A stretch of 64,000 nt of DNA, taken from positions 194,813-258,812 of the forward strand of contig JAHJQN010000004.1 of NCBI GenBank assembly GCA_018819225.1. Direction: 5' to 3'. Position 1 is the first letter of the stretch. Each line of letters opens with the position of its first letter. This stretch comes from Candidatus Micrarchaeota archaeon (lineage in GTDB: Archaea > Micrarchaeota > Micrarchaeia > Norongarragalinales > SBBD01). Below, piece by piece: positions 1 through 14,357 of this stretch. The translations under genes were made by a program, and so were the position numbers. Below the pieces are notes generated by a model. The model was not told where the DNA came from. It did no database searches and was given only the letters and a program-made list of their open reading frames with translations.

Positions 1-423
1 TCGATTACTCCTAGTAATAACATCTTTTATCGTTCCCAATCGAACATTTAAATCGGCCTGTTTCCCTTCTCGAATGGCATCTTTGAATGCAATAACTCGC
101 GGATTTTCCATACCGTGATCTCGTAAGTGATCATGAATAGCGGTTAAAACGGAGGACACACGTTCTGACGGAATTCGTGTCAAATGACTTTGTTCTATTT
201 GTAGCAATAGTTGATCTTCAACCATTTTTCCATGAAGGGCGGTCGTAATATCTCTAAAAGTTGCAGATGGAAAAATTTTTCTCATTAGTTTGGTATGCGA
301 CTCTCCATTTCGTCCCAACATTACTATTGGTTCGGTTGGATGCACTATAAAAGTAATGTCTGAAGTCGGGGTCCGAATTAATCGACTGCTTTTCCGAACT
401 ATAATTTCTTCATTCCGATTCAT
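1..423 (-). CDS. hypothetical protein, N-terminal part only (gene continues beyond window start); low-GC
   Basis: Minus-strand reading frame from ATG at 423..421 (MNRNEEIIVRKSSRLIRTP...) runs open to position 1; AT-rich codon usage like neighbouring island genes; no recognisable motif. Confidence 0.4.
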   Translation of the reverse strand, partial: MNRNEEIIVRKSSRLIRTPTSDITFIVHPTEPIVMLGRNGESHTKLMRKIFPSATFRDITTALHGKMVEDQLLLQIEQSHLTRIPSERVSSVLTAIHDHLRDHGMENPRVIAFKDAIREGKQADLNVRLGTIKDVITRSNR

Positions 424-643
424 AATTCCGTTTCTTGTTAAGGGTATTTAAATCAGGCGCTGGGGATGGGAGCAGGAAGAAAAGTTCCGGTCCCTCTCGC
501 AAAAGGAAAGCCCCGGCGGGAACCGACCAAAAAGGTCAAAGCCCTCAATAAAACGACTCGGAAGCGGGAAAAAAAGGCTAAATGAACCTATTCAATAGAT
601 ATACAATAATCAGATCCGCACCATTATTCATTTAAAGCCCTTA

Positions 644-1864
644 ATGAGTATTAAGTTGATGTTAATTGAGCTTCGAATAAAGCCAGGTAAGTTAAAGCTA
701 GTTCGAATGATAAACAAAATTTCTAAAAAATGTCATTTATCAAGTCGAAAAATACACAGAATACCTCACATTACAATATACGGCCCTTTCAAAGGTCGTG
801 GTTCAAATATTCGAAGTATTAATCAGATTTTAGCTCAAATTGGATCAAAATATGGACCATTGGAATTCCAAGTAAAAGGTTTCGAGTGGATGCAGGGCGA
901 GCATGGAAAAGTCATTTACTTCAACATTATACCTTCACCAGATTTAATAAAAATTCAAAAAGAACTTGCGTTTGAATTAAGTACAATTACGCCTAGTAAT
1001 AAAGAATGGGATAAATTTGGAAAATATACATTTCATTCTACTTTAGCATACCGACTAACTGATTCAGAGTTTAAACGCGTTTGGTCTTACGTAAATAGTG
1101 TTCCAAATTTTAAAACTAAAGTATTGAGTTATTTTGGAATTATTAGTCCTGATCGGAAATTTAAAATTAATGATTTTCATTTTCCAATGACTGCGTTCCG
1201 AATTACATTCCTCAACGACTATAGCAAAATCATTTCAGAATATGATTTTGTTACTCATCATATTCTAAATCGTTATGAAGCATTAAACCCAAAAGAATGG
1301 TCTAAAACTTTATGGAAATATCGCATAAATCGCGGAATAGAATTGTCTAACAATATTTCTTCAAAATCCTCTAGCGGACCGTACATAATTAGCGATACTC
1401 ATTTTGGTCATGAAAATATTATCGAGTATTGTATTCGTCCGTTTTCGTCTATTCATGAAATGAATCGAGTACTTATTTCAAATTGGAATCGGATTGTCAA
1501 ACCTAATGATATTGTTTATTTCTTAGGCGATTTATCGTTTGGAAGAAGTAAAAAACCTCCGTCTTATTGGCTAAACCAACTAAATGGAGATATTAGATTT
1601 ATTAGGGGAAACCACGATGACTTAGTTTTGTTAGGGAAAAAACACGAATACATTGATTTTGAAGGGGAAAAAATACTATTAGTACATGATCCAAAAGAAA
1701 AACCAAAAAATTGGAGTGGATGGATTATACACGGTCACAATCATAATAATGATCTTTCACGATATCCTCTGGTAAATAATACGAATAAAACAATCAACGT
1801 TAGCAGTGAACTAATCAATTATTCCCCGATTTCTCTTAAATATTTACTTTCTTTTCGAAAATAG
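644..1864 (+). CDS. 2H phosphoesterase (LigT/2',3'-cyclic phosphodiesterase-like) fused to calcineurin-like metallophosphoesterase
   Basis: N-terminal half has two H-x-T/S-x motifs (HITIYGPF, HSTLAY) typical of 2H phosphoesterases; C-terminal half has MPP motifs DTHFGH, GDLSFGR, GNHDD; AT-rich. Confidence 0.7.
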   Translation: MSIKLMLIELRIKPGKLKLVRMINKISKKCHLSSRKIHRIPHITIYGPFKGRGSNIRSINQILAQIGSKYGPLEFQVKGFEWMQGEHGKVIYFNIIPSPDLIKIQKELAFELSTITPSNKEWDKFGKYTFHSTLAYRLTDSEFKRVWSYVNSVPNFKTKVLSYFGIISPDRKFKINDFHFPMTAFRITFLNDYSKIISEYDFVTHHILNRYEALNPKEWSKTLWKYRINRGIELSNNISSKSSSGPYIISDTHFGHENIIEYCIRPFSSIHEMNRVLISNWNRIVKPNDIVYFLGDLSFGRSKKPPSYWLNQLNGDIRFIRGNHDDLVLLGKKHEYIDFEGEKILLVHDPKEKPKNWSGWIIHGHNHNNDLSRYPLVNNTNKTINVSSELINYSPISLKYLLSFRK

Positions 1865-2138
1865 ACGGTATTCATTCTTCTTTTAAAGAAAATCTATCTA
1901 GCTGCCTTCAATAACAAATCGGTGTATGGGAAGATAATATTCGTCATTCCCATCAACAATCCATAAATTAACGATATAAACTCCTGGCCCATCCGTTAAA
2001 TAATCACCAATTCCTGCTTCGACTTCAAATAAACCCGAAGGATTCGCATTCCATTTTCTTGGATACATGTATCGGGCATCATCTAGAAAATGACCGGGTT
2101 CGATAATTGCGGTTACATAATTATTTTCTAACTTAAAT

Positions 2139-2537
2139 TCACCAGCCGAATTTAATCGGCTTCATAGAAAAACCAAACGGCGATACCCGTTTTCTACGTT
2201 TTTTTCTTTTCATTTTCTTTCTTGGTTTAATCGCTTCTCGGGCATGCCTTTGCATTCGTTGAAACTCAGCCCACGATTTCCTTCCCATGTTCTTGTTACA
2301 TTGATAGCAGAGAACAACCGTGTTCTTAATCGTGGTTTTGCCTCCAGTTGACCAAGCCCGTTTATGTCCAAATTGAGCGGCAGGGTAATCCAATCGTTTT
2401 CGACAATTTTGACATCTTTTTCCTTGTTGAGCCCAAACGATTTGTTTCTGATTCGTCGGAAGTGTTCTTTTGTTATCCCTCCTCGGATCATTAGCCCCCC
2501 ATATCATGCGTTCAAAATTTCGGTTAGTTCCATACAT
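2139..2537 (-). CDS. HNH endonuclease
   Basis: C-x2-C ... H ... N ... C-x2-C arrangement (CQNCRKRLD...HKRAWSTGG...NTVVLCYQCN), basic C-terminal tail. Confidence 0.75.
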   Translation of the reverse strand: MYGTNRNFERMIWGANDPRRDNKRTLPTNQKQIVWAQQGKRCQNCRKRLDYPAAQFGHKRAWSTGGKTTIKNTVVLCYQCNKNMGRKSWAEFQRMQRHAREAIKPRKKMKRKKRRKRVSPFGFSMKPIKFGW

Positions 2538-2563
2538 CTAAATCCCCCATTAAATCTTGATCG

Positions 2564-2860
2564 TTAGAATCTCCAGACTTCATAGCTTCGCTTGTGCTTC
2601 CTATAAGTCTTCCGTTGTAATTTTGAAAGACGTGCTCTACCCGATTTGACTTCTACTAGTTTTTTCTTTTTCCTTCCAGTACGCCAACTACGCTTTGAAA
2701 CCTCGTAGTCAGACCCCCGACCTGTTCTTTTAATACTATAGCCGTGTAGTCCATAACGGGTAATTGCCAGGTCTTCCGCCATCTTGCCTTTTGTTTTATT
2801 TCGAACTAAACGTGTACGTTTTGCTTCTCGCAATAATCCGCCAAGAAGACCCAATTCCAT
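2564..2860 (-). CDS. hypothetical small basic protein
   Basis: 98-aa Lys/Arg-rich ORF co-directional and 27 nt upstream of HNH gene; no motif recognised. Confidence 0.35.
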   Translation of the reverse strand: MELGLLGGLLREAKRTRLVRNKTKGKMAEDLAITRYGLHGYSIKRTGRGSDYEVSKRSWRTGRKKKKLVEVKSGRARLSKLQRKTYRKHKRSYEVWRF

Positions 2861-2979
2861 CTCCTAATGGCAAAGCGTTAAACTCCTTTTTTAAGGCATA
2901 TCCTACAAGAGAGTACAGGGACCTTTTTATTAGAATAAAAATATGAAAATCGATAGTGCACTTTAATAGTTGACGACAA

Positions 2980-3948
2980 ATGGAAGTATATGAAATAATG
3001 TCAACTCCGCCAATAACGGTTAGATTAACGGATAGTGTACATAAAATTCAAAAATTATTTTACAGGCATAAAATTGCTAGTATTTTTGTCGTTGAAAATG
3101 GAAGAGTTGAAGGGCTAGTTACAAGAAAGAACTTTTTTTCAAGTAAACATTTTCTTAGACACAATTCAACTGCAAAAAATGTAATGACAAGAAACGCATA
3201 TACAATTCATTCAACTGCCGGCGTAGATACTGCTTCGGATTTAATGATTCAATATGGTGTCAATAGTCTTGCTGTAATCAGAAGTGGAAAAATTGTAGGG
3301 GTAGTCACCCGATTTGACTTTAATAAACGCAAACGAGAGCATAATCCGCCAACCTACATTCAGTATACGCCAAATCCGCCATCAAACAATAAAAGTTTTG
3401 GTTTTTATATTTTTATAAGCATTATTTTATTGTATCTAGGCTACACTTTTATCTACCCCATTATTGAATTTAGTAATACTAGTTCAATAGAATTTCTAAT
3501 ACACCAAAAAATCAATTATGAACGCGGTAAATACAGACTTCCACATTTAATGTACGATAGTTCATTACAAAGAACTGCAGACAAGCATAGTATAGATATG
3601 GAAGAAAATAATTTCTTCGACCATATTAATAAACAAGGGAAAGATCCCGCTCAAAGACTCTACGAACAAGGATTCTCGTGTTCAAAACAATACGGTAACC
3701 TAATTTATTCAGGCGTTGGCGAAAATATTGCAAAAGAACCAATTTTTAGCCAAAGGGGATTTTTAGCCATTTTTCCATACGTTATTTGGAACGATAAAGA
3801 AAAAATTGCCTCGGCAACAGTGGAAGGATGGATGAAAAGCCCAAGTCATAGAGAAAATATCTTAACTGCTCATTATTCGTCTGAAGGAATTGGTGTTCAT
3901 AGAAGTACTTTTGGAGAGTATTTCTATATAACTCAAAACTTCTGTTAG
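2980..3948 (+). CDS. CBS-pair domain / transmembrane / CAP (SCP, PR-1-like) domain protein
   Basis: Two CBS-like repeats at N-terminus (VVENGRVEGLVTRKNF; VIRSGKIVGVVTRFDF), central hydrophobic helix (FGFYIFISIILLYLGYTFIYPII), C-terminal CAP signature (HRENILTAHYSSEGIGV...GEYFYITQNF). Confidence 0.65.
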   Translation: MEVYEIMSTPPITVRLTDSVHKIQKLFYRHKIASIFVVENGRVEGLVTRKNFFSSKHFLRHNSTAKNVMTRNAYTIHSTAGVDTASDLMIQYGVNSLAVIRSGKIVGVVTRFDFNKRKREHNPPTYIQYTPNPPSNNKSFGFYIFISIILLYLGYTFIYPIIEFSNTSSIEFLIHQKINYERGKYRLPHLMYDSSLQRTADKHSIDMEENNFFDHINKQGKDPAQRLYEQGFSCSKQYGNLIYSGVGENIAKEPIFSQRGFLAIFPYVIWNDKEKIASATVEGWMKSPSHRENILTAHYSSEGIGVHRSTFGEYFYITQNFC

Positions 3949-4032
3949 ACCGTTTTATATTGAGTAGTTAGGGCATTGTGATATCGTGTTCAAACCCGGC
4001 CTGCGGCATAGACAACGGTATACGGAAAAAAG

Positions 4033-5796
4033 CTATTTCGTTGGAATCAATCTCTCCAGATCATGCAAAATATGGGCAACGGATGTCCTCAATTCGTCCA
4101 AAATGTTACTTAACTCCGCGATTGTTACTTCAAGTGTTCCTACCCGTCCTTCAAGATCGGAACTCCCAAAAGGGGTAACCGAAGTGCATCCCTTGCTTTG
4201 TTTCTGAAGCCCCACAAGAGTACACATGTATTCCGTCTGGAACTTATTATTTTTTCCTTCAATGCGACGATGAGTGTAAGCGTTCACACCCGTGCAATAG
4301 AAGTCATAAAACGTGTTGCAAACCTGATTATCGTTAATGATATTATTTCCACTGGATAAAACAATTCCCCTCTCATTTCTGGAAATATCGTTATTCGTAA
4401 TATTAGTATCGGAGGTCACTTCAAGAGCAAGAAATTGATCTCTGAACTTATTACGAAAGATCGTTAGTGTTCCCTCAGAATTACCTAAGTTGGATGCGAT
4501 ACCCACATAATTGTTGTTTATTGTATTGTTCTCAAATAGCGATTGGGAAGCCGAATAATTGTGCCAGTACAGGATGTATCGAATGCCGTACTTGAAGTCT
4601 TGGATGATGCAATTCTTAACTGTTAAATTGCCATGGTGCAAGCTGTCTACTCCGCTGCCGAATCCTGATTCATAACCCGGCCCAGTAATGGAATGACCCT
4701 GACAATCCAAGGTTACGTCGTCTGATCCGATTATGATACAGCTATCGTTGTAGGTATCCACATGCAAGTCTTCTTCCAAGTAAGTGTCTTCGAAAATAAT
4801 ACCGCACGCAGAAGGCTCCGGTTCAGTTTCGTTCTGGGAATTGATTACGAAGTTGTCGAAAACGGAGTCCACGACGCCATCATGGCCGGCAACCGTCTCA
4901 AAAGAAAAAGTGATGGGATACTGATCGGTAAAATCGGTAATAATTGGAGGAGAACCATACACGTGCCACTCATTCGTCTGCGTAATCGTTCCGTTCGGCA
5001 ATATGGTTGTTAAAACGGCGGAAGAGTTACTGAACGAAATGTGGAGCTGGTAGTCTCCCAAATCGTTCCCCAACTGAACTTCCCCGTTCCAATTACCAAC
5101 CCATTTCTCAACCAACGTGCCATCCCTGAGTTTCAAGACCGTGCGAATCAAGCGGTTGCCGGAACCACTCGGGTAATACACGTAATAGGAAAGCTCATTG
5201 CCAGGATAGAATGAATGATTAGTCATAGTCATTCGTGTGCGGGCGTCACGGGCACCAAGCTGGCTGAGCCGATAGTTTTGAGTGAAGTTGTCACGGTAAT
5301 GCAAGTCAACGTGCCCAGACCCAGGCGTGCTTTCGTTCCATAACAGGTTCGTAGCCACTTCGTTGGAAAAGTCGTCGTATAACTGCTCGCCTTCATCTAG
5401 AACTGGAAGAGTCGTAAAGTTCTGGTTAGATGAATTAAGACAACCGAATTCATTGCAGTTCATTGTCATGACGTGATAAGTCGTGTTCGGCTCAAGGTCA
5501 TCGGAAATATTGAAGAAAAATGTTTGATTATAAGGAATACCTGCCCTGTAGTAAGAATACGTGTAATTATTCCAACCGCTACCCTCACCACTTCCAACAA
5601 AAAGAGTTGAATTAGCTGGCTGGTTAGTATACCAAGCAAACCACGCACTCGAACTCGTAATAAAGTAGACAGACAAATTGATCAGTGCAGGCGGTTCCGA
5701 AGGAATGGAAGGCGCTGACCCGAAATCATCTCCAGAAACGTAAGGAAAACTCGCCGCTAAACACAGAATCAATGCCCAAAAGCTAAAACGGTTCAT
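4033..5796 (-). CDS. secreted right-handed beta-helix repeat surface protein with many N-glycosylation sequons
   Basis: Signal peptide MNRFSFWALILCLAASFPYVSG (start chosen at internal Met, codon 5796..5794); parallel beta-helix-like repeats (NNTINNNYVGIASN, NITNNDISRNERGIVLSSGNNIINDN); >25 N-x-S/T sequons. Confidence 0.7.
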   Translation of the reverse strand: MNRFSFWALILCLAASFPYVSGDDFGSAPSIPSEPPALINLSVYFITSSSAWFAWYTNQPANSTLFVGSGEGSGWNNYTYSYYRAGIPYNQTFFFNISDDLEPNTTYHVMTMNCNEFGCLNSSNQNFTTLPVLDEGEQLYDDFSNEVATNLLWNESTPGSGHVDLHYRDNFTQNYRLSQLGARDARTRMTMTNHSFYPGNELSYYVYYPSGSGNRLIRTVLKLRDGTLVEKWVGNWNGEVQLGNDLGDYQLHISFSNSSAVLTTILPNGTITQTNEWHVYGSPPIITDFTDQYPITFSFETVAGHDGVVDSVFDNFVINSQNETEPEPSACGIIFEDTYLEEDLHVDTYNDSCIIIGSDDVTLDCQGHSITGPGYESGFGSGVDSLHHGNLTVKNCIIQDFKYGIRYILYWHNYSASQSLFENNTINNNYVGIASNLGNSEGTLTIFRNKFRDQFLALEVTSDTNITNNDISRNERGIVLSSGNNIINDNQVCNTFYDFYCTGVNAYTHRRIEGKNNKFQTEYMCTLVGLQKQSKGCTSVTPFGSSDLEGRVGTLEVTIAELSNILDELRTSVAHILHDLERLIPTK

Positions 5797-6044
5797 GTAA
5801 CTACACCCCCTATTGGCTACGGACAAACAACATTTTTTAAGGAGTGGCTTTGGTCGATTTCGGTTTGTTCGAGCGCATAACGATTTCAAAGAGGCGAATC
5901 TCGTCGATGGCCAAATAGAGCAGGGCTTAAATAGGGGTTTGCGGTCAGGGCAAGCGGGTGCGAGGCCAAAAGCCAGCCGGAACCGGCTTGGGATAGTAGA
6001 TTATGAGGGAATTATGGCGGGGGGCTTCGCTACCGTGGGCTGAA

Positions 6045-6174
6045 AGCCCCCGGCGAGAATCGAACTCGCGACCTCCTGTTTTCTCGCTCTTGCTTTTTTG
6101 GTCGAGCTTTTCTTAAAGAAAAGGTCGGGTGGCAAGGTTACGAGACAGGCGCTCTTCCGCTGAGCTACGGAGGC
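6045..6174 (-). tRNA. tRNA-Thr(CGU) with ~57-nt intron at canonical 37/38 position
   Basis: Reverse complement reads GCCTCCG-TA-GCTCAGCGGAAGAGC-G-CCTGT-CTCGTA[intron]A-ACAGG-AGGTC-GCGAGTTCGATTCTCGC-CGGGGGC-T; acceptor, D, anticodon and T arms all pair; intron 3' region (GCAAGAGCGAG) pairs with anticodon-loop/exon (CTCG..CTTGC) as expected for BHB. Confidence 0.75.
6098..6129. repeat. palindromic T-rich hairpin motif copy 1 (TTGGTCGAGCTTTTCTT-AA-AGAAAAGGTCGGG), inside tRNA-Thr intron
   Basis: 8-9 bp stem CTTTTCTT/AAGAAAAG; same motif recurs at 6204-6240, 7584-7622, 7842-7882. Confidence 0.6.
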
Positions 6175-6203
6175 ATAAATGTTTTTTCAAATGCCCATTT
6201 CAT

Positions 6204-6240
6204 TTGGCGGAGCTTTTCTTTATAAAAGAAAAGGTCCGCG
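6204..6240. repeat. palindromic T-rich hairpin motif copy 2 (TTGGCGGAGCTTTTCTTTATAAAAGAAAAGGTCCGCG)
   Basis: Perfect 9-bp stem CTTTTCTTT/AAAGAAAAG extended by GCGGAC/GCTCCGC; lies between tRNA-Thr and a 21-nt partial copy of its 5' end. Confidence 0.6.
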
Positions 6241-6244
6241 CTTC

Positions 6245-6265
6245 CTTCCGCTGAGCTACGGAGGC
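6245..6265 (-). repeat. 21-nt partial duplicate of tRNA-Thr 5' end (acceptor + D-stem/loop)
   Basis: cttccgctgagctacggaggc identical to 6154-6174. Confidence 0.7.
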
Positions 6266-6304
6266 AACTTTATTTTTTATGAACCGTTTGTTTTAAATGG
6301 CAAT

Positions 6305-6353
6305 GGGGGGTAGGGGCGACCCGCGTAAGGGGAACTCCCCTTGGAGGGGGTCC
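6305..6353 (+). ncRNA. GC-rich structured element copy 1 (GGGGGGTAGGGGCGACCCGCGTAAGGGGAACTCCCCTTGGAGGGGGTCC)
   Basis: Two hairpins (GGG-GCGA-CCC GNRA-like; AAGGGGA-AC-TCCCCTT); second copy at 48061-48108 with two compensatory base-pair changes in the second stem. Confidence 0.45.
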
Positions 6354-6520
6354 TGGGGTGCGGAGGCATTCTGACAACAAAATGCGCATTGTTTATGGAC
6401 GGCTTTTGTTTAAAAAAACGTTGGATACTGGATCCGGGGATGCAACCAGACATTTAATAATATTCAGGCGCTCTTTTCAATCGTATTTCACGAACGAAAT
6501 CAAGGGAGGCTGATAAACGG

Positions 6521-7105
6521 ATGCCACACAAATGCGTCAAATGCGGAAAATTGTATCCGAACATGGCGCCAGAGCTCATGAAAGGCTGCGAATGCACGTC
6601 CCGCATCTTCTTGTTCTTGCGCGAAAGCCAAGTCAGCGTCAAGGAGACCATGGAGTTGCTGCAGGAAGAGAGCCAGAAGCTCGTGGAAGACACGAAAGCC
6701 ATTCAAGAACTCGCCGAAGCCACGCCCATCACCATAGAAAAAATCGAGCTGCCTTCCGTACCCGTCAAGTCCATGGTGGAACAACAGGACGTGCACGGCA
6801 AGCCCCACGTCATTCGAGTACAAGAAAAGAAGGATCCTGAAAAAGCCGTGGATGAAATCGAGGAAGCGGACATGGAATCCGATCAAGAAGATGACACGGA
6901 CGGGCTCGTGGACGGGGACATGGAGAAAACCGTTTTACCCGTTGACGCGGACGGAGAACCCGTTGAAAACATCACCATCCTGGAAAAGGGATCGTACGAG
7001 CTCAACATCGAGTCACTCATGGCGGGTAACCCGCTCGTCATCCGAACCGAACGCGGAATATTCTACATACGCATTCCGACGCCCGTCAACCAAAGGAATC
7101 GGTAA
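6521..7105 (+). CDS. Zn-ribbon domain protein with acidic C-terminal region
   Basis: N-terminal C-x2-C ... C-x-C (HKCVKCGKLY...GCEC), acidic low-complexity middle; ends overlapping next gene start (ATGG). Confidence 0.5.
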   Translation: MPHKCVKCGKLYPNMAPELMKGCECTSRIFLFLRESQVSVKETMELLQEESQKLVEDTKAIQELAEATPITIEKIELPSVPVKSMVEQQDVHGKPHVIRVQEKKDPEKAVDEIEEADMESDQEDDTDGLVDGDMEKTVLPVDADGEPVENITILEKGSYELNIESLMAGNPLVIRTERGIFYIRIPTPVNQRNR

Positions 7106-7401
7106 TGGCTATTAACGAGATCGCATCCAAACCGGCTATCGACGTAGCGGAAAGCGTGGCGTTTTCCGGAGCGGACTTGATCATCATCGCCGGAGTCGTC
7201 ATTATTCTGGCACTCATCGTCCTCTTTATTTTCCGGCGGTTTCTCATCAACTCCGTCATCGGAATCATCGCCCTCATCGTACTGAATTATGCGGGCGTAG
7301 AGATTCCGTTGAACGTGGCCACCATTGTCGTCACCGCGATTTTGGGTTTAGTGGGCGTGGCGCTGCTCATCATCCTCAAGCTATCGGGAATCGCCTTTTA
7401 A
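7105..7401 (+). CDS. small integral membrane protein (3 predicted TM helices)
   Basis: 98-aa hydrophobic ORF translationally coupled to upstream gene. Confidence 0.5.
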   Translation: MAINEIASKPAIDVAESVAFSGADLIIIAGVVIILALIVLFIFRRFLINSVIGIIALIVLNYAGVEIPLNVATIVVTAILGLVGVALLIILKLSGIAF

Positions 7402-7433
7402 TGGTTCCCGGGACTAATTTTGTTTCCAGGCAA

Positions 7434-7557
7434 GGGCCCGTAAGAGAAACCATCTCCGGGACGCTCAGCTTGGATAGAGCGATTGCCTCCTAATCACTCG
7501 CGGATTGCAAGTGGAGGGGAAAGCAATAGGTCGTGGGTTCGAATCCCACCGGGCCCG
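7434..7557 (+). tRNA. tRNA-Arg(CCU) with ~29-nt anticodon-loop intron and an unusual 20-nt insert between acceptor 5' strand and D stem
   Basis: GGGCCCG...[20 nt]...GCTC-AGCTTGGATA-GAGC-G-ATTGC-CTCCTA[intron]A-GCAAT-AGGTC-GTGGGTTCGAATCCCAC-CGGGCCC-G; acceptor strands complementary; canonical T loop. Confidence 0.6.
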
Positions 7558-7583
7558 CTTAATGCCAGTTCCCGTGGTTTCAT

Positions 7584-7634
7584 TGGTCGAGTTTCCTTCC
7601 CAAGAAAGGTCGTTCAGAATCCCGACCGGGCCCG
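7584..7634 (+). repeat. hairpin motif copy 3 plus degenerate partial copy of tRNA-Arg 3' end (GGTCGTTCAGAATCCCGACCGGGCCCG)
   Basis: TTGGTCGAGTTTCCTTCCCAAGAAAGGTCG followed by T-arm-like + acceptor-3'-like sequence sharing ACCGGGCCCG with tRNA end at 7547-7556. Confidence 0.55.
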
Positions 7635-7673
7635 TATATTAATTAAACTTGTTTTCCTGCAACCTATACCATT

Positions 7674-7790
7674 GCGGAGGTCGCATAGTGGCTATTGCGG
7701 CAGCCTGCTATCTTTTTGCAGCGAAGGCTGCGGAAGGTTGGAAAGCTGTTGGCGCTTCGCGCCTCGTGGGTTCGAGTCCCACCCTCCGCG
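7674..7790 (+). tRNA. tRNA-Ser(GCU), class II with long variable arm and ~16-nt intron
   Basis: GCGGAGG-TC-GCAT-AGTGGCTA-TTGC-G-GCAGC-CTGCTA[intron]G-GCTGC-variable arm (GGCGC-TTC-GCGCC)-GTGGGTTCGAGTCCCAC-CCTCCGC-G. Confidence 0.75.
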
Positions 7791-7841
7791 CTCAATAATG
7801 CGGTCGTTGGATACCATGGAACATATGGGTAACCGGTTTCT

Positions 7842-7897
7842 TTGGTCGAGCTTTCTTTACAAAGAAAGGTCGTTCGGAATCCTTACCCTCCGCGCTA
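7842..7897 (+). repeat. hairpin motif copy 4 plus degenerate partial copy of tRNA-Ser 3' end (GGTCGTTCGGAATCCTTACCCTCCGCGCT)
   Basis: TTGGTCGAGCTTTCTTTACAAAGAAAGGTCG (8-bp stem) then sequence sharing ACCCTCCGCGCT with tRNA-Ser 3' end. Confidence 0.55.
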
Positions 7898-7943
7898 TTA
7901 ACAGTTATGGATTGCGCGTAGGTTAATCATACAGGTAAAGCAA

Positions 7944-8882
7944 ATGAATTTCCGAAACGTATTGTATTTCATTGCGTTGATTGCCCTTGCGTACGCATTG
8001 CTCAAGATTTTTCAAGCCGAGCAGGCGCTCCCGAAACTCGATGCATTCATCGCGGCAGGCGCTATAGTCAGTTACTTGATCAGCATCGTGCTATGGAACG
8101 AAGCATGGGGCCAGTATTTGAAAATTGATTTTTGGAAAAGCAATACCATTGGATGGAGCGCGCAGTTCGCGGCATTGACGCCGTTAAGCATCGGAAACGA
8201 CGTATTGAGAGGTTATTTCGCGAAACAGCACGGCCACCGGTTTTCCGCAGGGATGGCGGCGAGCCTGGCCACCAAGTTTTATAAGATTGCGTTGGCACTC
8301 GTTTTTTCAGCTGCGGGTATCGCGTTATTGTTTTTGCGAAATGAAGAACTCCAGCAATGGATTGGATTAGGCGTCGTCGTACCGGTACTGCTGTTGCTGG
8401 GGCTATACGTTATCACGAAGGAAGGCTTCGCGGGAATCGTCAACAAGATCACGTTCAACCGTATCGCGAAAGGGCGTATGATCGAGTTCTCCGGCAAAAT
8501 GAAGTATTACGTTCACGCTCCATCGGGAAGCGTCTTGCTGATATTAATCACTTCACTCGCGTTCGAATTTCTGGCGTTCTACCTGTGTTTCCAGGCGTTC
8601 GGCGTGTTCTTGGAACCGTTCACCGCCTATTTGGCTTACGCGCTATTGTTCTTTTTGTCGAAAATTCCGTTGCTGCCGCAAGGCATCGTCATAACGGAGA
8701 TAGCGGGCGTCATGATTTTGAGGAGTGTCGCCGCGTTACCACTGGTGGCAGCAGGAATCCTGTTATGGAACGTTTCACGCGTGTGGGTTCCAGTCGTCAT
8801 GAGCTTTCTCGTTCTATCGTTATCAAAGCAAAAGTTGCCGGACTCCAACGAAATGAGGAAATGGGAGACCGAACGCCATTAA
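7944..8882 (+). CDS. polytopic membrane protein, UPF0104 / lysyl-phosphatidylglycerol-synthase-TM (flippase-like) family candidate
   Basis: ~8 hydrophobic helices, no soluble domain; family assignment by overall pattern only. Confidence 0.5.
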   Translation: MNFRNVLYFIALIALAYALLKIFQAEQALPKLDAFIAAGAIVSYLISIVLWNEAWGQYLKIDFWKSNTIGWSAQFAALTPLSIGNDVLRGYFAKQHGHRFSAGMAASLATKFYKIALALVFSAAGIALLFLRNEELQQWIGLGVVVPVLLLLGLYVITKEGFAGIVNKITFNRIAKGRMIEFSGKMKYYVHAPSGSVLLILITSLAFEFLAFYLCFQAFGVFLEPFTAYLAYALLFFLSKIPLLPQGIVITEIAGVMILRSVAALPLVAAGILLWNVSRVWVPVVMSFLVLSLSKQKLPDSNEMRKWETERH

Positions 8883-9523
8883 GCATCCGCAGCAGCGGCT
8901 TGAGCGAGGCGTTGCTTGGTGAGCTTCAAGGCGAAAAAGCGTTCGGATTCCAAGCGGTTCAAGTGATCGGAAATCGATTTGATCGTTGCTTTCAGTCGGG
9001 GCTGCACGTTGAATTCCAAGGCATTGACTTTGCGATTCGTGATCTCGATTTCCTTCAACAAACGTTTGAGAGCGGTTTCAAATTCGGCGAGCTTGATGAT
9101 GAGATTCAACGATTTTTCGAAGTGTTCGACGGCTTCATCGAATTTCGCGGAAGACCCTTGAAGACTGTAACCGCGGGAAAGCAAGTCCTTCGAGACATCG
9201 ACTCCGCGAATCTCGGCAATGCGCACGCCCATGATGTTCTTGGGTTTGACCTCGATTTCAGGCACTTTCTTGGAAGAAAGTGCAGCGGTTTCCACGAACA
9301 AATCGCCGTGGAACGCGCGGGCAATGGCGAGTGAACGAAAAGAAGATTTCAATTCACCATCGACTTCAGAACGCAGGTTCTTGGCTTTCTTTACCACTTG
9401 AAAGAACTCCAAAACAAGCGCATCACGTTTTTGTTTTAAAAGTTTGTGGCCTTTCGAGGCGAGAATAAGGCGTTGTTTCGTGTTCAACATTTCCATTCGA
9501 GTGGGCCTGACGCCTTCCACCAT
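8879..9523 (-). CDS. atpD: A/V-type ATP synthase subunit D
   Basis: N-terminal PTRMEMLNTKQRLILASKGHKLLKQKRDAL matches the conserved V-ATPase D start (PTRMELL..K.RL..A.KGHKLLK.KRD.L); coiled-coil, ~214 aa. Confidence 0.8.
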   Translation of the reverse strand: MVEGVRPTRMEMLNTKQRLILASKGHKLLKQKRDALVLEFFQVVKKAKNLRSEVDGELKSSFRSLAIARAFHGDLFVETAALSSKKVPEIEVKPKNIMGVRIAEIRGVDVSKDLLSRGYSLQGSSAKFDEAVEHFEKSLNLIIKLAEFETALKRLLKEIEITNRKVNALEFNVQPRLKATIKSISDHLNRLESERFFALKLTKQRLAQAAAADA

Positions 9524-9565
9524 ACGATTACACCAATCCGCAAGAAAAAGAATGCAGTAGAGGAA

Positions 9566-10378
9566 TTATAATCCTTTGGACGCGATTTCGATGCCATAGA
9601 TTCGGCGAGCGGTTTCCGATAGAACGCGGTCGACTTCAGAAATGGGAATGTTTCGTTTGGAAGAGATGCGCTCGTACACCTCCTGCACGTTCTTGGACTC
9701 GTTTCGGCCGTTCAACCATAAATAAGGGGAATCGGTTTCCGCTTGAAGCGAAGAAAGAGGGGCTTTCTTGATGATGGTGTCTCGGGCCTTGTTTTTCATA
9801 GTGCTTAAAGATAAGGTGTAATGGCGTCGAAGCGCTTCGGAGAGAAAAGGCGGGGCGTAGAAACAATGGAGAATCACGCTCAGCTTCGGGAATTCCGCCA
9901 ATATCTCGAAGGCAGGAGCGTGCGACTCGCGCAAGTGAATTTGGACGGGCTTGGAAAAGGATTCGGCGAGCTCGAGCTGCGCGCGGAACGCCTGAATTTG
10001 AACCGCATGATCTTTTTCCTTGAAATAATGGTATTCGAGACCGATTTCGCCGATGGCGATGGCCTGTTCCGCATGTTTCTTGAGAAAAGAGAGCTCGAGT
10101 GGAAGATTTTTTGTGACGGCGTCGTGCGGGGATAAGCCGATGACGGGATAGAGGAATCGGGGATGGCGTTGGCATAATGAAAGCACGTGCTCGGAATCGA
10201 TTTGAGACGTGCCAATGCATAAAACAGCGGATAGCGATTGGCGTGCCCGAGCGATTACGGACTCGACATCGGATTGAAATTTCTCATGCGTGAGATGAGC
10301 ATGGCCGTCGAACATACGGGTATATAGTTTCAATCGGAATAAAACGGTTTGGGGTGAAAGAAGAAGGTCAACTGCCAT
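9566..10378 (-). CDS. tatD: TatD-family metal-dependent hydrolase
   Basis: HAHLTHEKF near N-terminus, conserved His/Glu/Asp positions of TIM-barrel TatD fold, ~270 aa. Confidence 0.75.
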   Translation of the reverse strand: MAVDLLLSPQTVLFRLKLYTRMFDGHAHLTHEKFQSDVESVIARARQSLSAVLCIGTSQIDSEHVLSLCQRHPRFLYPVIGLSPHDAVTKNLPLELSFLKKHAEQAIAIGEIGLEYHYFKEKDHAVQIQAFRAQLELAESFSKPVQIHLRESHAPAFEILAEFPKLSVILHCFYAPPFLSEALRRHYTLSLSTMKNKARDTIIKKAPLSSLQAETDSPYLWLNGRNESKNVQEVYERISSKRNIPISEVDRVLSETARRIYGIEIASKGL

Positions 10379-10497
10379 GTATATAAATGTTTTACACCCT
10401 CAAAGAAAAACATCCGATTCCGTTTTTCCTAAGTGCCTGCAGACGCTTAGAAGGCAAGGGAAAAAAGGAAAACGATTCGATTGAAAGGATTGGAAAA

Positions 10498-12243
10498 ATG
10501 GCTGATTCGGCTTACCTATCCAAAATCGCGGGACCGGTGGTAGAAGCGACCAGCATCCGCGGATCTCAAATTAACGAACTGGTTCGAGTGGGGAGCGATC
10601 AGCTCATGGGCGAGATCGTCGCGCTAAAGGAAGATCGCGCGACCATTCAAGTCTATGAAGATACGAGTGGCTTGCGGCCCGGAGAAAAAGTCGAGCGGAC
10701 GGAACAGCCGTTAAGCGTGGAATTAGGACCCGGATTACTTTCGGGAATTTTTGATGGAATTCAACGCCCGCTGGATCGCATCAAGGAAATGGCGGGCGAT
10801 TACATTCCGAGAGGCATTGATGTCCCTGCACTGAATCGGAAAAAGAAGTGGACGTTCAAGGCATCCGTGAAAAAAGGGGATAGCGTCAAGGCAGGAGACG
10901 TGCTCGGAACCGTCAAGGAATTTGATTTCGAGCACCGGATTCTCGTCCCGTACGGGTTCGAGGGAGCGGTGAGTGACGTCAGGGACGGAGAGTTTACGGT
11001 GACTCAAAGCATTGCAAGCGTGGGAAAGAAGGATGTGACGATGATGCAGAAGTGGGGGGTGCGCACGCCGCGAAAGTCCAAGGAGAAACTGCGCATCGAT
11101 CGGCCGTTAATTACCGGGAAGCGTATTGTGGACACGTTCTTCCCGATTGCCAAAGGAGGGGTGGCGGCCATTCCCGGACCATTCGGAAGCGGTAAAACCG
11201 TTACCCAACAAGATTTGGCGAAGTATGCGGATGCGGATTTGATTGTGTACGTGGGATGCGGAGAGCGCGGGAACGAAATGACGGACGTGTTGTTCGAGTT
11301 CCCGAAGCTGCTGGACCCCAAGAACAAGAAACCGCTCATGAACCGAACCGTTTTGATCGCGAACACGAGCAACATGCCGGTCGCCGCCCGGGAAGCCAGC
11401 ATTTACACGGGGATCACGATTGCCGAGTATTATCGGGATATGGGTTATGACGTGGCGTTGATGGCGGATTCAACGAGCCGGTGGGCTGAAGCCATGAGAG
11501 AAATTTCAGGTCGCATGGAGGAAATGCCGGGGGAGGAAGGGTATCCGGCATACCTGGCCAAGCGTTTAGCGGAATTCTACGAGCGCGCGGGAAGAGTGCG
11601 CTGCCTGGGAACCAAAGACAGGTTCGGAAGCGTATCCGTTATCGGTGCCGTATCGCCGCCTGGAGGCGACATTTCGGAACCGGTTTCTCAATCCACGCTG
11701 CGCGTGACGAAAGTATTTTGGGCGTTGGACGCCGATTTGTCGCGTCGCAGACATTACCCGGCGATTCACTGGTTGAAAAGCTATTCGTTGTATTTAGACG
11801 ATCTCGAGAAATGGTATTTGGAGAACGTGGCCAGTGATTTTTACCAGATTCGCGGACAGTGCATGGCCTTGCTGCAGAAAGAAGCGGAACTGCAGAACAT
11901 CGTGCAATTGATTGGGCCGGACGCATTGCCGGACAAGGAGCGTTTGGTATTGGAAGTCACGAAAATGATTCGGGAAGATTTCTTGCAGCAGAACTCGTTT
12001 GAAGAGATTGACGTGTATTCCTCGTTGAAAAAACAGCACCTCATGTTGAAAACCATTCTCAAGTTCTATGACAAGGCGGAGCAAGCGCTGAAAATGGATG
12101 TGACGTTGGATCGCGTGTTGTTGGCGAAAGAGCGGCAGGTCATTGCCGGATTGAAACGGTTGAAGGATGAGGAAACCGTGAAGGCCGCGAACGGCGCCAT
12201 GAAGAGCTTGGAGACCTCTTTCGGAAAAGGGGAAAAGAAATGA
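10498..12243 (+). CDS. atpA: A/V-type ATP synthase catalytic subunit A
   Basis: Walker [12 protein letters not shown], catalytic-subunit-specific non-homologous insert; start set at [17 protein letters not shown] (internal Met of the 618-aa ORF). Confidence 0.9.
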
Positions 12244-13688
12244 TTAAGGAGTACCAAACCGTGCGGGAAATCTTCGGGCCGATTGTCTACGTCGAGGGCG
12301 TGGAGAATGCGGGGTACGGGGAAACCGTGGAAATCATTCTGCCGGACGGCACGAAAAAGAAGGGGCAAGTGCTTGAAACGCGTAAAGGGTTGGCGGCCGT
12401 ACAAATCTTCGGTAACACGGAAGGGTTGGATACCCAGGAAACGCGCATTCGTTTTACAGGGGATACGTTGCGGTTGGGCGTTTCCGAGGACATGCTGGGA
12501 CGCGTGTTCAATGGAAGCGGTGACCCCATCGACAAGGGATCACCCATCATCAGCAAGGAAAAGTCCGATATCAATGGTTCGGCATTGAATCCAGTGGCGC
12601 GGGACGAGCCCAAGGAATTCATTCAAACCGGCATCTCGACCATCGACACGATGAACACGTTAGTGCGGGGTCAAAAACTCCCGATTTTCTCGGGAAGCGG
12701 TTTGCCCCACAATGAGATTGCCGTGCAGATCGCGAGACAGGCAACGGTTCTCGGAAAGGAGGAAGCGTTTACCGTCGTGTTCGGAGCCATGGGAATTACG
12801 CACTCGGAAGCCTCCTTCTTCATGCAAAACTTTGAAAAAACCGGGGCCTTGGAACGAGCGGTCTTGTTCTTGAATTTGGCGAACGATCCGTCCATTGAAC
12901 GATTGATTACGCCGCGATTGGCGTTAACCACGGCCGAATACTTGGCGTTCGAAAAAGATTATCAGGTGCTGGTTATCCTCACGGATATGACGAATTACTG
13001 CGATTCGCTGCGCGAAATTGCGGCGGCACGACAGGAAGTGCCGGGACGACGGGGATACCCGGGATACATGTACACGGATTTGGCCAATATTTACGAGAGG
13101 GCCGGACGCGTGCGCGGCAAAAAAGGAAGCATTACCCAGCTCCCGATCCTGGCGATGCCGGACGATGACATTACGCATCCGATCCCGGACTTGACGGGAT
13201 ACATTACGGAAGGACAAATCGTGTTGTCGCGCGATTTGTATCGAAAAAACATTTATCCGTGCATAGACGTGTTGCCGTCGCTATCGCGATTAATGAATGC
13301 AGGAATCGGAAAAGGCAAAACGCGGGAAGATCACGCCGGAATTTCATCGCAACTGTACGCGTCGTACGCGGAAGGAAGGGATTTAAGAAACTTGGTCGCG
13401 GTCGTCGGGGAAGAAGCGTTGACGGAACGGGATAAGAAGTTCCTGAAGTTTGCTGACTTGTTCGAGAAACGGTTCGTGACGCAAGAACGCATGGAAAATC
13501 GCGGGATCGAAGAGTCATTGGATCTGGGATGGGAGCTGGCGAGCCTGCTTCCGGAAGAAGAGCTCAAACGCGTTAAACCGGAACACCAAGAGAAGTACGG
13601 GAAAAAGTTCCGGGGATCCGACCCTGAAAAGAACGTCGTGGAACACGAGGAACGCCAGGCCGCCAAACAGGAAGCGCGACCCCCGTGA
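12240..13688 (+). CDS. atpB: A/V-type ATP synthase subunit B, with ~35-aa charged C-terminal extension
   Basis: Overlaps atpA stop by 4 nt; conserved regulatory-subunit motifs ([33 protein letters not shown]). Confidence 0.9.
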
Positions 13689-13691
13689 AAA

Positions 13692-14357
13692 CTATTTGGG
13701 GACAACGCATTCGCCGTATCCGCTCGCCGGAACGCCCAAATGGTGCAGGCACGTATAACCCGACGGGCATAGCAGAGAGGTGACGCCTCCGCACGCCATA
13801 CCCTCGCTGGATTGAGAAACGAGCGGTTCGTTATTGAATGAAACGTGCACGGCATCCACGCGGTTATATACGGGGAGTACGGCGGAATAATGGGCGTTGC
13901 CCGTGCAGTCCTTGCATAACGCCGGATTCTCTGCAATCGTAATAAAGTTCACGGTGAGCTCCCGGTTTTTTAATTCCCATTCCGCGTTCGCGTAATGGGG
14001 ACACGTCGTCATACCGCGGACCACTGCAACGTATACGCCGTTGGAACGCCCGGAAATAATATTTCGGTTCATTTGGGGGCCGCAAGAGGATTGGACGCGC
14101 GCGGAAAGAACGCCGTTTCGATGCGGACCCGGAGGAACCGGGGTGGGAGTCACGTATTGCCAGGGATCCGGAACCCAGTAGACCAGAGATTGACTGCGAT
14201 CACCGCGGGCGGGATACGTGGGAATGGAGGTGGGTTCGATAGTGGACAAGACCGCGTGAGGTTCGGATTCCGTTGGAACTTTTTCCGAGGAAGCGACTTG
14301 AAGACAACCCGATAGGTATAAGGCGAAAATCAATAAGGAGAAGGTTGCGATCTGCAT
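13692..14357 (-). CDS. secreted cysteine-rich protein (lipoprotein-like signal peptide)
   Basis: MQIATFSLLIFALYLSGC signal/lipobox-like; 12 Cys in mature part. Confidence 0.5.
   Translation of the reverse strand: MQIATFSLLIFALYLSGCLQVASSEKVPTESEPHAVLSTIEPTSIPTYPARGDRSQSLVYWVPDPWQYVTPTPVPPGPHRNGVLSARVQSSCGPQMNRNIISGRSNGVYVAVVRGMTTCPHYANAEWELKNRELTVNFITIAENPALCKDCTGNAHYSAVLPVYNRVDAVHVSFNNEPLVSQSSEGMACGGVTSLLCPSGYTCLHHLGVPASGYGECVVPK

Follow-up and report, generated by a model that had tools for sequence, protein, structure and literature searches.

A conserved archaeal fusion of 2H phosphoesterase and metallophosphoesterase domains as a candidate two-step 2',3'-cyclic phosphatase

A stretch of 64,000 nucleotides from the metagenome-assembled genome of a Candidatus Micrarchaeota archaeon (contig JAHJQN010000004.1; hereafter the window) carries a gene, probably at positions 659..1864 of the plus strand, whose product joins a 2H phosphoesterase domain to a binuclear metallophosphoesterase (MPP) domain. 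This 2H-MPP protein is a conserved, uncharacterised combination of two known catalytic modules. We infer the two activities, the order of the steps and the substrate, and propose, with a probability of roughly 0.4, that the protein strips ribose 2',3'-cyclic phosphates in two steps and that RNA 3' ends are its likeliest substrate.

The protein would act as a cytosolic, stand-alone, bifunctional "cyclic phosphatase". In the first, metal-independent step, the 2H domain, with His37/Thr39 and His126/Thr128, would hydrolyse the ribose 2',3'-cyclic phosphodiester to a phosphomonoester; in the second, metal-dependent step, the MPP domain, with D246, H248, D291, N318, H343, H360 and H362 as predicted metal ligands, would take off the monoester to leave the 2',3'-diol. 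Residue numbers refer to the 401-aa protein beginning at nt 659. The likeliest substrate would be an RNA 3' end cut by metal-independent RNases or by transesterification. Removal of the cyclic phosphate (>P) would unblock such an end for an ATP-dependent RNA ligase, the CCA-adding enzyme, tailing enzymes and 3' exonucleases, and would also take it away from RtcB. A small Nudix protein, which in some lineages is encoded beside the gene or fused to it, may act on the same substrate.

Each step has a precedent. Cyclic phosphodiesterases (CPDases) of the 2H type need no metal to convert RNA 2',3'>P to 2'-PO4, and they lack monoesterase activity; the binuclear MPP of CthPnkp, the Pnkp of Clostridium thermocellum, removes both 2'-PO4 and 3'-PO4 (PMC3592404, Table 1). 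Since the former stops at 2'-PO4 and the latter removes 2'- and 3'-PO4, a fusion of the two kinds of domain would complete the conversion of >P to OH. The removal of >P from RNA ends is physiological: CNP, which is a 2H enzyme, and ANGEL2 both lower the substrate for RtcB (PMC10630183).

The N-terminal part of the protein (aa 1 to about 205; nt 659..1273, plus strand) is assigned to the 2H phosphoesterase superfamily by its motifs, profile matches and predicted bilobed alpha+beta fold. The earlier note had read two 2H motifs, HITI and HSTL, from the sequence, and both are present as it stated: H37-I-T39-I at 767..778 (+) and H126-S-T128-L at 1034..1045 (+). When 120 homologues were aligned, His37 was found in all 112 without a gap at that position, with S or T at position +2 in 110 of these 112; His126 was found in 119 of the 120, and its +2 position was T or S throughout (120/120). 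Pfam PF13563 (2_5_RNA_ligase2) matched aa 38-159 with E=2e-15 and 57.5 bits against a cut-off of 27, and the profile of the 120-member family matched the 2H protein YjcG (2d4g) in the PDB with E=7e-6. Using the predicted structure, Foldseek returned 2d4g, 1vdx, 1jh6, 5v1m and 8tly at a probability of 1.00 for the N-terminal half, and also 9bkq; the folds among these matches were those of YjcG, LigT, a plant CPDase, Usb1, ASCC1 and a poxvirus cGAMP phosphodiesterase (PDE). The fusion protein is not an orthologue of ThpR/LigT or of YjcG, because it falls far under the corresponding NCBIfam equivalog cut-offs (14.3 versus 65.7 bits for TIGR02258, ThpR/LigT; 29.3 versus 129 bits for PRK13679, YjcG). 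The 2H domain is basic family-wide, with a median isoelectric point of 9.6 and values above 8 in 97% of the members, and the MPP domain is near neutral. This charge is compatible with binding of a polyanion such as RNA and is no proof of it.

The C-terminal part (aa about 241-401; nt 1379..1861, plus strand) is assigned to the binuclear MPP superfamily, more precisely to the AQ1575/COG4186/phrog_547 family. Here too the DxH, GD and GNHD motifs noticed earlier lie where they had been placed, and profile and fold uphold the assignment. As judged from the sequence, all five motifs of a binuclear MPP occur in order: motif I, D246-T-H248 (1394..1402, +), with D and H each in 120/120 homologues; motif II, G290-D291 (1526..1531, +), with G in 120/120 and D in 109/120; motif III, G317-N318-H319-D320 (1607..1618, +), which is canonical in the window protein; motif IV, His343 in LVHD (1685..1687, +), with the His in 119/120; and motif V, H358-G-H360-N-H362 (1730..1744, +), with G359 and H362 in 120/120 and H360 in 109/120. 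The match to PF12850 (Metallophos_2; aa 248-372, E=6e-6) scored 26.8 bits, 0.2 below the cut-off of 27, and many homologues carry PF00149 or PF12850. A stronger match was obtained with the PHROG family phrog_547 "phosphoesterase" (aa 222-399, E=1.7e-42). In the PDB, the Aquifex MPP aq_1665 (1xm7) was matched with E=4e-8 by the single sequence and 1e-12 by the family profile, and Foldseek with the C-terminal half returned 1xm7, Vps29 and LpxH. Among the viral structures of BFVD, the matches were phage metallophosphatases (one of them labelled COG4186), followed by viral LigT-like proteins, with Acb1 much weaker (E about 2e-3).

The two domains are joined by a segment at 1274..1378 (+; aa about 206-240), which consists of a helix at aa 211-225 containing the invariant R222 and then a loop of low confidence. 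The AlphaFold2 (AF2) model built on the 120-sequence alignment had a mean predicted local distance difference test (pLDDT) score of 91.1 and a predicted TM score (pTM) of 0.88; in its 2H part pLDDT was mostly above 90, with the exception of aa about 150-170. Thus, as the earlier note had suggested looking for, profile search and structure prediction gave 2H folds for the N-terminal half and MPP folds for the C-terminal half. In the alignment, conservation extends to the catalytic residues of either domain, and the invariant columns R181, E194-Y195-D196 and R222 flank the junction. It follows from this conservation that both active sites are under selection, and the domains appear to be rigidly coupled.

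The same results bear on whether the gene is real. The abrupt fall in GC content around it (31% versus 50%) might be taken to mean that two genes were joined by a frameshift or an assembly error, or that AT-rich and GC-rich DNA were combined in a chimera, and the earlier note had raised the frameshift as a concern. However, more than 100 full-length homologues share the 2H+MPP architecture and, at about 400-425 aa, the length of the protein, and at least 531 scanned stretches in the collection of species-representative genomes encode a relative. The inter-domain region is highly conserved, and one confident model covers the whole protein. Furthermore, the GC boundaries on either side lie in identical sequence within an ENA contig of 709 kb, to part of which window positions 1-11864 are 100% identical, and an independent Logan contig of 7.3 kb, 100% identical to positions 313-7612, runs over the boundary between the AT-rich island and the chromosome on the tRNA side. 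A joining artefact is therefore ruled out for practical purposes, its probability being negligible, and the open reading frame (ORF) is a true fusion gene.

The earlier note had placed this ORF at 644-1864. An ORF of this extent, on the plus strand and with 406 aa, is present in the ORF list and its end at 1864 stands, while the start at 644 gives way to the ATG at 659, which is likelier and yields 401 aa plus stop. The true start is probably 659 rather than 644, because all the aligned homologues open with MLIE.R, as does the protein when read from the ATG at 659, and because a TTTAAA sequence (631..636, +), a candidate archaeal TATA box read from the sequence, lies about 25 nt 5' of it. Gene callers disagree on this point: the Logan protein (P0001) has 401 aa, and ENA uses 644. 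The archaeal promoter geometry suggests that the mRNA of the gene may be leaderless.

The fusion is widespread. A search among 5.8 billion proteins gave 359 matches, of which the best 120 are nearly all 385-435 aa long, contain both domains and share 38-52% identity; when 1.84 billion cluster representatives were searched exhaustively with a profile, 479 proteins matched at E<=1e-30. The relatives are mainly archaeal, with Dehalococcoidia in addition. They were found in Dehalococcoidia/Chloroflexota, in Methanoregula and other Methanomicrobiales, in Methanosarcinales and Methanocella, and further in Micrarchaeota, Nitrososphaerales, Bathyarchaeia, Hadarchaeota, Woese-, Aenigm- and Iainarchaeota. 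The 90%-identity cluster of the window protein includes MBU1197475.1 (Candidatus Micrarchaeota archaeon). Hundreds of genomes of archaea and Dehalococcoidia thus contain the architecture, which the earlier note did not recognise as a standard one, and it has already been annotated automatically, as [quoted passage not shown] by JGI and as "2'-5' RNA ligase family protein" by NCBI. We found no published description of the 2H-MPP fusion or of the function of aq_1665 or COG4186, an earlier purely computational mention being possible; the closest parent families, the YjcG-like 2H and the AQ1575/COG4186 MPP proteins, are both functionally orphan. The same MPP subfamily also occurs in other architectures (P0157, P0228, P0257 and P0205), namely 2H+MPP+DnaJ, a 764-aa protein with the MPP domain before the 2H domain, VWA+MPP, and zf-AN1+MPP+transglutaminase. 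In Methanocella arvoryzae (L005), the second gene upstream of the fusion encodes a DnaJ-HEAT protein.

We then considered the genes around the fusion in 88 cellular loci, in which all ORFs were clustered by all-vs-all BLAST and the 106 immediately flanking ORFs were compared with Pfam. No general neighbour of 2H-MPP was found across the 88 loci. The only recurrent partner was one orthologous group of small Nudix proteins, with the signature RRRGTAIV[DE]T...LPGGGA.RGE[ST]R..AA.REL.EETGL, which is adjacent in six distinct contexts (seven loci). In two Methanosarcinales loci (L010:5583-6017 and L076:5581-5883), in Nitrososphaerales (L045:5401-5985) and in two Chloroflexota/Dehalococcoidia loci (L052:1693-2172 and L068:5132-5593), the Nudix gene immediately precedes the fusion gene in the same orientation and either abuts or overlaps its start; in L006/L007 (L006:10310-10708) it is found two genes downstream. 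Fused forms occur in two architectures, 2H+MPP+Nudix in Nitrososphaerota (P0174, encoded by L086:1028-2731) and Nudix+MPP (P0221). The wider census around the six Nudix-linked loci gave no second recurrent family. The sole large clusters of neighbours came from Methanoregula, where genes for PNPOx-like, thioredoxin-domain, MBL-rhodanese and MutS proteins accompany the fusion gene; they were set aside as functional links, being lineage-specific synteny only.

Two observations concern HEPN proteins, which as RNases leave 2',3'-cyclic phosphate ends. In a Methanoregulaceae locus, a 143-aa ORF that looks HEPN-like by eye (L060:5552-5983) shares 7 nt with the beginning of the 2H-MPP gene, and in L010 a protein with a Pfam match to HEPN_Cthe2314 is encoded about 4.4 kb upstream of 2H-MPP.

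The MPP domain has numerous relatives in viruses. Stand-alone forms of 160-245 aa were found in 1522 phage records and 525 IMG/VR loci, and the CDD label MPP_AQ1575 is seen on phage homologues. The best 80 viral relatives were kept, and their 115 immediate same-strand neighbours were scanned against Pfam. Most of these neighbours had no Pfam match. The commonest annotated ones were the cREC "cyclic-phosphate processing receiver" (three), other MPPs (three) and kinase-type AAA_33 proteins (two); RtcB (L165:2355-3575), an RNA ligase with an OB domain (L134:6777-8057) and HAD_PNKP were found once each, as were, on the side of NAD and ADP-ribose, NAMPT (L157) and a PARP-like ADP-ribosyltransferase (L155). 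The genome of Caulobacter phage CcrColossus has the MPP gene two positions behind RtcB and immediately ahead of a gene for an HD phosphohydrolase, and other phages carry it within replication or nucleotide-metabolism modules. The viral context thus leans toward RNA-end repair together with NAD/ADP-ribose chemistry, and the signal is modest. The RNA-repair genes that adjoin viral MPP homologues lend indirect support to the proposed sequence of a cyclic phosphodiesterase and a phosphomonoesterase.

Several points weigh against our proposal. The RNA-repair context comes only from distant one-domain viral paralogues and amounts to about 8 of the 115 neighbours; near the fused gene in the 88 cellular loci we found no RNA ligase, kinase, RtcA or Hen1 gene, and a tblastn search for RtcB or RNA ligase beside the fused gene in the cellular loci and in the window was likewise negative. 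YjcG, aq_1665 and the phage MPPs, as members of the families concerned, are all uncharacterised, and no characterised close relative was found. The residue N318 of the GNH motif (nt 1610-1612) is S, R or C in 30 of the 120 homologues; the Asn of GNH[DE] is one that we take to be an MPP metal ligand. Where N318 is replaced the other ligands stay conserved, and the window protein has the canonical Asn. MPP enzymes can also be diesterases or nucleases instead of monoesterases. In addition, archaeal tRNA splicing uses RtcB, which needs a cyclic or 3'-phosphate, and healing to OH is consequently not needed for the main archaeal ligation pathway. Finally, the Nudix partner and the viral NAMPT and PARP neighbours fit a small molecule derived from ADP-ribose equally well.

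On such a small-molecule account, which we regard as rather unlikely, the 2H domain would open ADP-ribose 1'',2''-cyclic phosphate (Appr>p) or 2',3'-cyclic nucleoside monophosphates (2',3'-cNMPs), the MPP domain would remove the phosphate, and the Nudix protein, where present, would split the ADP-ribose or nucleotide so formed. The enzyme would then correspond, in the cytosol, to CpdB or to the route from Cpd1 to Poa1, and the reactions would lead from Appr>p through Appr-1''p and ADP-ribose to AMP and ribose-5-phosphate, or would salvage cNMPs. A single orthologous Nudix group as the sole recurrent partner, adjacent or fused, speaks for this clean-up function, and Appr>p bears a pyrophosphate as well as a cyclic phosphate. 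The Arabidopsis Appr>p cyclic phosphodiesterase (1fsi/1jh6) is among the structures that Foldseek matched, NAMPT and PARP-like genes adjoin viral MPP homologues, and published predictions tie 2H, Nudix and calcineurin-like enzymes to the processing of ADPr>P (PMC9503650). However, a Nudix gene of the partner group is not encoded in the 64-kb window and is absent at about 90% of the loci, and the Nudix proteins themselves are only weakly similar to YtkD, RppH and MutT, their best PDB relative (3f13) being uncharacterised. RtcB-type splicing makes no 2'-phosphate junctions, so that a source of Appr>p is not evident in these archaea, and a nucleotide substrate does not require a strongly basic 2H domain.

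A further alternative starts from the earlier note's suggestion that cyclic oligonucleotide signals such as cA3 and cA4 might be degraded. The 2H domain would then cleave cyclic oligoadenylates, cGAMP-type or 2'-5'-linked messengers in the manner of Acb1, the poxvirus cGAMP PDE or NS2/AKAP7, and the MPP domain would trim the phosphorylated products, making the protein an off-switch or an anti-defence factor. In structure the 2H domain resembles a cGAMP PDE from penguinpox (9bkq, E about 8e-4) and, more weakly, Acb1 models, yet its matches to LigT, YjcG and CPDase structures are better. The gene lies in the window within an AT-rich island with nucleases, and in locus L002 it is surrounded by a region with Fic, Imm5, Vsr and methylase genes; however, no PADLOC model matched the fusion protein, and the immediate neighbours that were examined at the 88 cellular loci included no CRISPR, CBASS, Thoeris or Pycsar genes. 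Although the MPP domain is abundant in phages, neither the fused 2H-MPP form was present among the best 80 viral relatives nor the 2H domain of the fusion family within 8 kb of their MPP genes. The fusion is not part of any known defence system, the degradation of cA3 or cA4 has no contextual support, and we judge a role in degrading signal nucleotides to be quite improbable.

Returning to RNA 3' ends as the likeliest substrate, the Nudix association allows a broader and still speculative idea, to which we give little weight: 2H-MPP and, where present, the Nudix protein might form an archaeal "RNA end-deprotection" module, through which archaea and Dehalococcoidia would control RNA fate at a point not described so far. 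In such a module, the Nudix protein would convert 5'-triphosphate or NAD-capped ends to 5'-monophosphate and 2H-MPP would convert 2',3'-cyclic phosphate to 3'-OH. The module would decide between re-ligation by RtcB, Rnl3-type ATP-dependent ligation or circularisation, and exonucleases.

In the window, the fusion gene belongs to an AT-rich island of about 4.5 kb (1..4600 of the window; 9300-14000 of the longer contig L092), which composition profiles of both sequences show as 31-41% GC in a chromosome of about 50% GC. The fusion gene has 31% GC and the gene for the CBS-CAP protein described below about 33%, with 50% on both sides. The island contains the fusion gene, a 56-aa ORF, an HNH gene, a small PD-(D/E)xK-like gene, the CBS-CAP gene and the 3' part of a gene for a 618-aa secreted-looking protein. 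The surrounding chromosome is archaeal, encoding A-type ATPase A/B subunits, OapC, SufBD and intron-containing tRNAs at about 50% GC. Upstream of the window lie genes for 149-aa and 1356-aa proteins without Pfam matches and for a giant RHS/YD-repeat protein. Horizontal acquisition of the island is likely. It was also considered as a mobile element integrated at a tRNA gene, and this was rejected, there being no second copy of the neighbouring tRNA's 3' end within 21 kb and no integrase seen. A non-coding RNA in the GC-richer spacer at 452-600 was dismissed as well (folding z-scores of -0.9 and +0.7; no Rfam match).

The HNH endonuclease gene (2139..2537, minus strand; 132 aa; PF01844 with E=7e-9, and several PHROG HNH families) had been connected with the fusion in the earlier note. 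No HNH homologue was found in any other of the 88 clustered loci, and HNH did not recur among the Pfam families of the 106 flanking ORFs, nor was it among the top neighbour families. The HNH nuclease is a mere neighbour unrelated to the fusion gene. At this place the ENA gene caller has an alternative-frame 93-aa ORF instead of HNH. Together with the gene for a 98-aa PD-(D/E)xK or VRR-NUC-like protein with the motif GSDY...E.K (2564..2860, minus strand; weak PF08774 match with E=9e-4; C-terminus of the PADLOC model TmtA with E=3e-6), the HNH gene forms a tight pair. The one homologue of this 98-aa protein (L036:4336-4611) is encoded about 1.3 kb upstream of 2H-MPP, beside an ORF resembling an IS200-type transposase by eye. 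An operon of the fusion gene with the HNH and PD-(D/E)xK genes was rejected, since the former does not recur and the small nuclease recurs once (L036).

The same island encodes a CBS-CBS-TM-CAP protein of 322 aa (2980..3948, plus strand; PF00571 and PF00188; TM, transmembrane). Its BLAST cluster has ORFs near 2H-MPP in six other loci, from Thaumarchaeota, Cenarchaeum-like metagenome-assembled genomes and Methanosphaerula (L028:4564-5775, L066:1178-2074, L066:2082-3782, L067:4096-5850, L070:1321-2286, L070:3885-5459, L075:7078-8709 and L086:274-1014). Direct similarity to the CAP part of the window protein is seen only in L028, L066 and L070, and a Pfam CAP match in three immediate neighbours. 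We take the recurrence of CAP-domain membrane proteins near 2H-MPP for co-location, which does not argue for a function in common.

Beyond the island, Rfam finds three intron-containing tRNAs of 100-130 nt that ARAGORN misses, at 6045-6174 (-), 7458-7557 (+) and 7674-7790 (+), the first of which is interrupted behind its anticodon loop by an insertion of about 55 nt. Upstream of this first tRNA, its 5' end (GCCTCCGTAGCTCAGCGGAAG...) recurs in two partial copies at 6190-6267 and 6353-6369 (-), spaced by 91-102 nt, and the first copy includes a hairpin resembling the intron. These copies could be tRNA-gene fragments, pieces of a split tRNA or recombination scars. The largest ORF of the window, of 3453 aa, is at 51202-61563 (-).

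The removal of 2',3'-cyclic phosphates decides the fate of cleaved RNA in repair, tRNA maturation, decay and stress signalling. In the literature we found no description of a dedicated archaeal cyclic phosphatase, and 2H-MPP is a candidate for this missing enzyme in methanogens, ammonia-oxidising archaea, DPANN archaea and Dehalococcoidia. If the proposal is right, 2H-MPP would be a fifth, modular solution beside T4 Pnkp (HAD), CthPnkp (MPP), ANGEL2 (EEP) and the 2H enzymes that stop at the 2'-phosphate. It would further provide a first clue to the function of the orphan YjcG-like 2H family and the AQ1575/COG4186/phrog_547 family, the latter found in more than 1500 phage genomes, and might serve as a one-protein reagent in library preparation for sequencing of cyclic-phosphate RNA (cP-RNA). 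If the substrate were Appr>p or signalling nucleotides instead, archaeal NAD/ADP-ribose metabolism would be linked to both families.

Compared with known systems, the N-terminal domain is closest to Bacillus subtilis YjcG and the archaeo-bacterial LigT/ThpR group (2d4g, 1vdx and 2fyh), which have in common with it the two HxT/S motifs and the bilobed fold and are the best profile and Foldseek matches of aa 1-205. These proteins have a single domain of about 170-190 aa, whereas in the fusion a conserved junction (EYD, R222) leads to a covalently attached MPP domain; for YjcG itself no function has been established. The MPP domain shares its motif set, including the H-x-N-I-I...RPF segment after DxH, with aq_1665, MPP_AQ1575, COG4186 and PHROG 547. 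These are stand-alone proteins very common in phages, whereas in the fusion the domain sits behind a 2H domain. CpdB of Escherichia coli is likewise bifunctional, converting 2',3'-cyclic nucleotides to nucleosides via its MPP domain; it is periplasmic, lacks a 2H domain and carries a 5'-nucleotidase C-terminal domain beside the MPP domain.

The MPP of CthPnkp, which converts RNA 2',3'>P, 2'-P and 3'-P to OH (PMC3592404), is alike in principle to that of the fusion. The earlier note's comparison with the Pnkp phosphatase holds at the level of the superfamily and not at that of the family, the fusion MPP being of the AQ1575/COG4186/phrog_547 type and not lambda-phosphatase-like. CthPnkp is a kinase-MPP-ligase protein whose lambda-phosphatase-like MPP carries out both steps itself and whose partner is Hen1, none of which applies to the fusion: it has only the 2H and MPP domains, and neither the window nor the cellular loci that were examined showed a kinase, ligase or Hen1 neighbour, so that it does not belong to the Pnkp/Hen1 system. 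In the CPD domain of the yeast and plant tRNA ligase Trl1 and in vertebrate CNPase, a 2H domain opens RNA 2',3'>P to 2'-PO4 without metal (PMC3592404). These enzymes lack a phosphomonoesterase; they retain the 2'-PO4 for ligation, and Tpt1 takes it off later. Where the Trl1 type has a kinase and a ligase, the fusion has a phosphatase-type domain. The net conversion of RNA>p to RNA-OH predicted for the fusion is the same as that of human ANGEL2 (EEP fold), which antagonises RtcB ligation (PMC10630183), and of T4 Pnkp (HAD). ANGEL2 and T4 Pnkp have unrelated folds and use a single active site, whereas 2H-MPP would divide the conversion between two fused catalytic domains.

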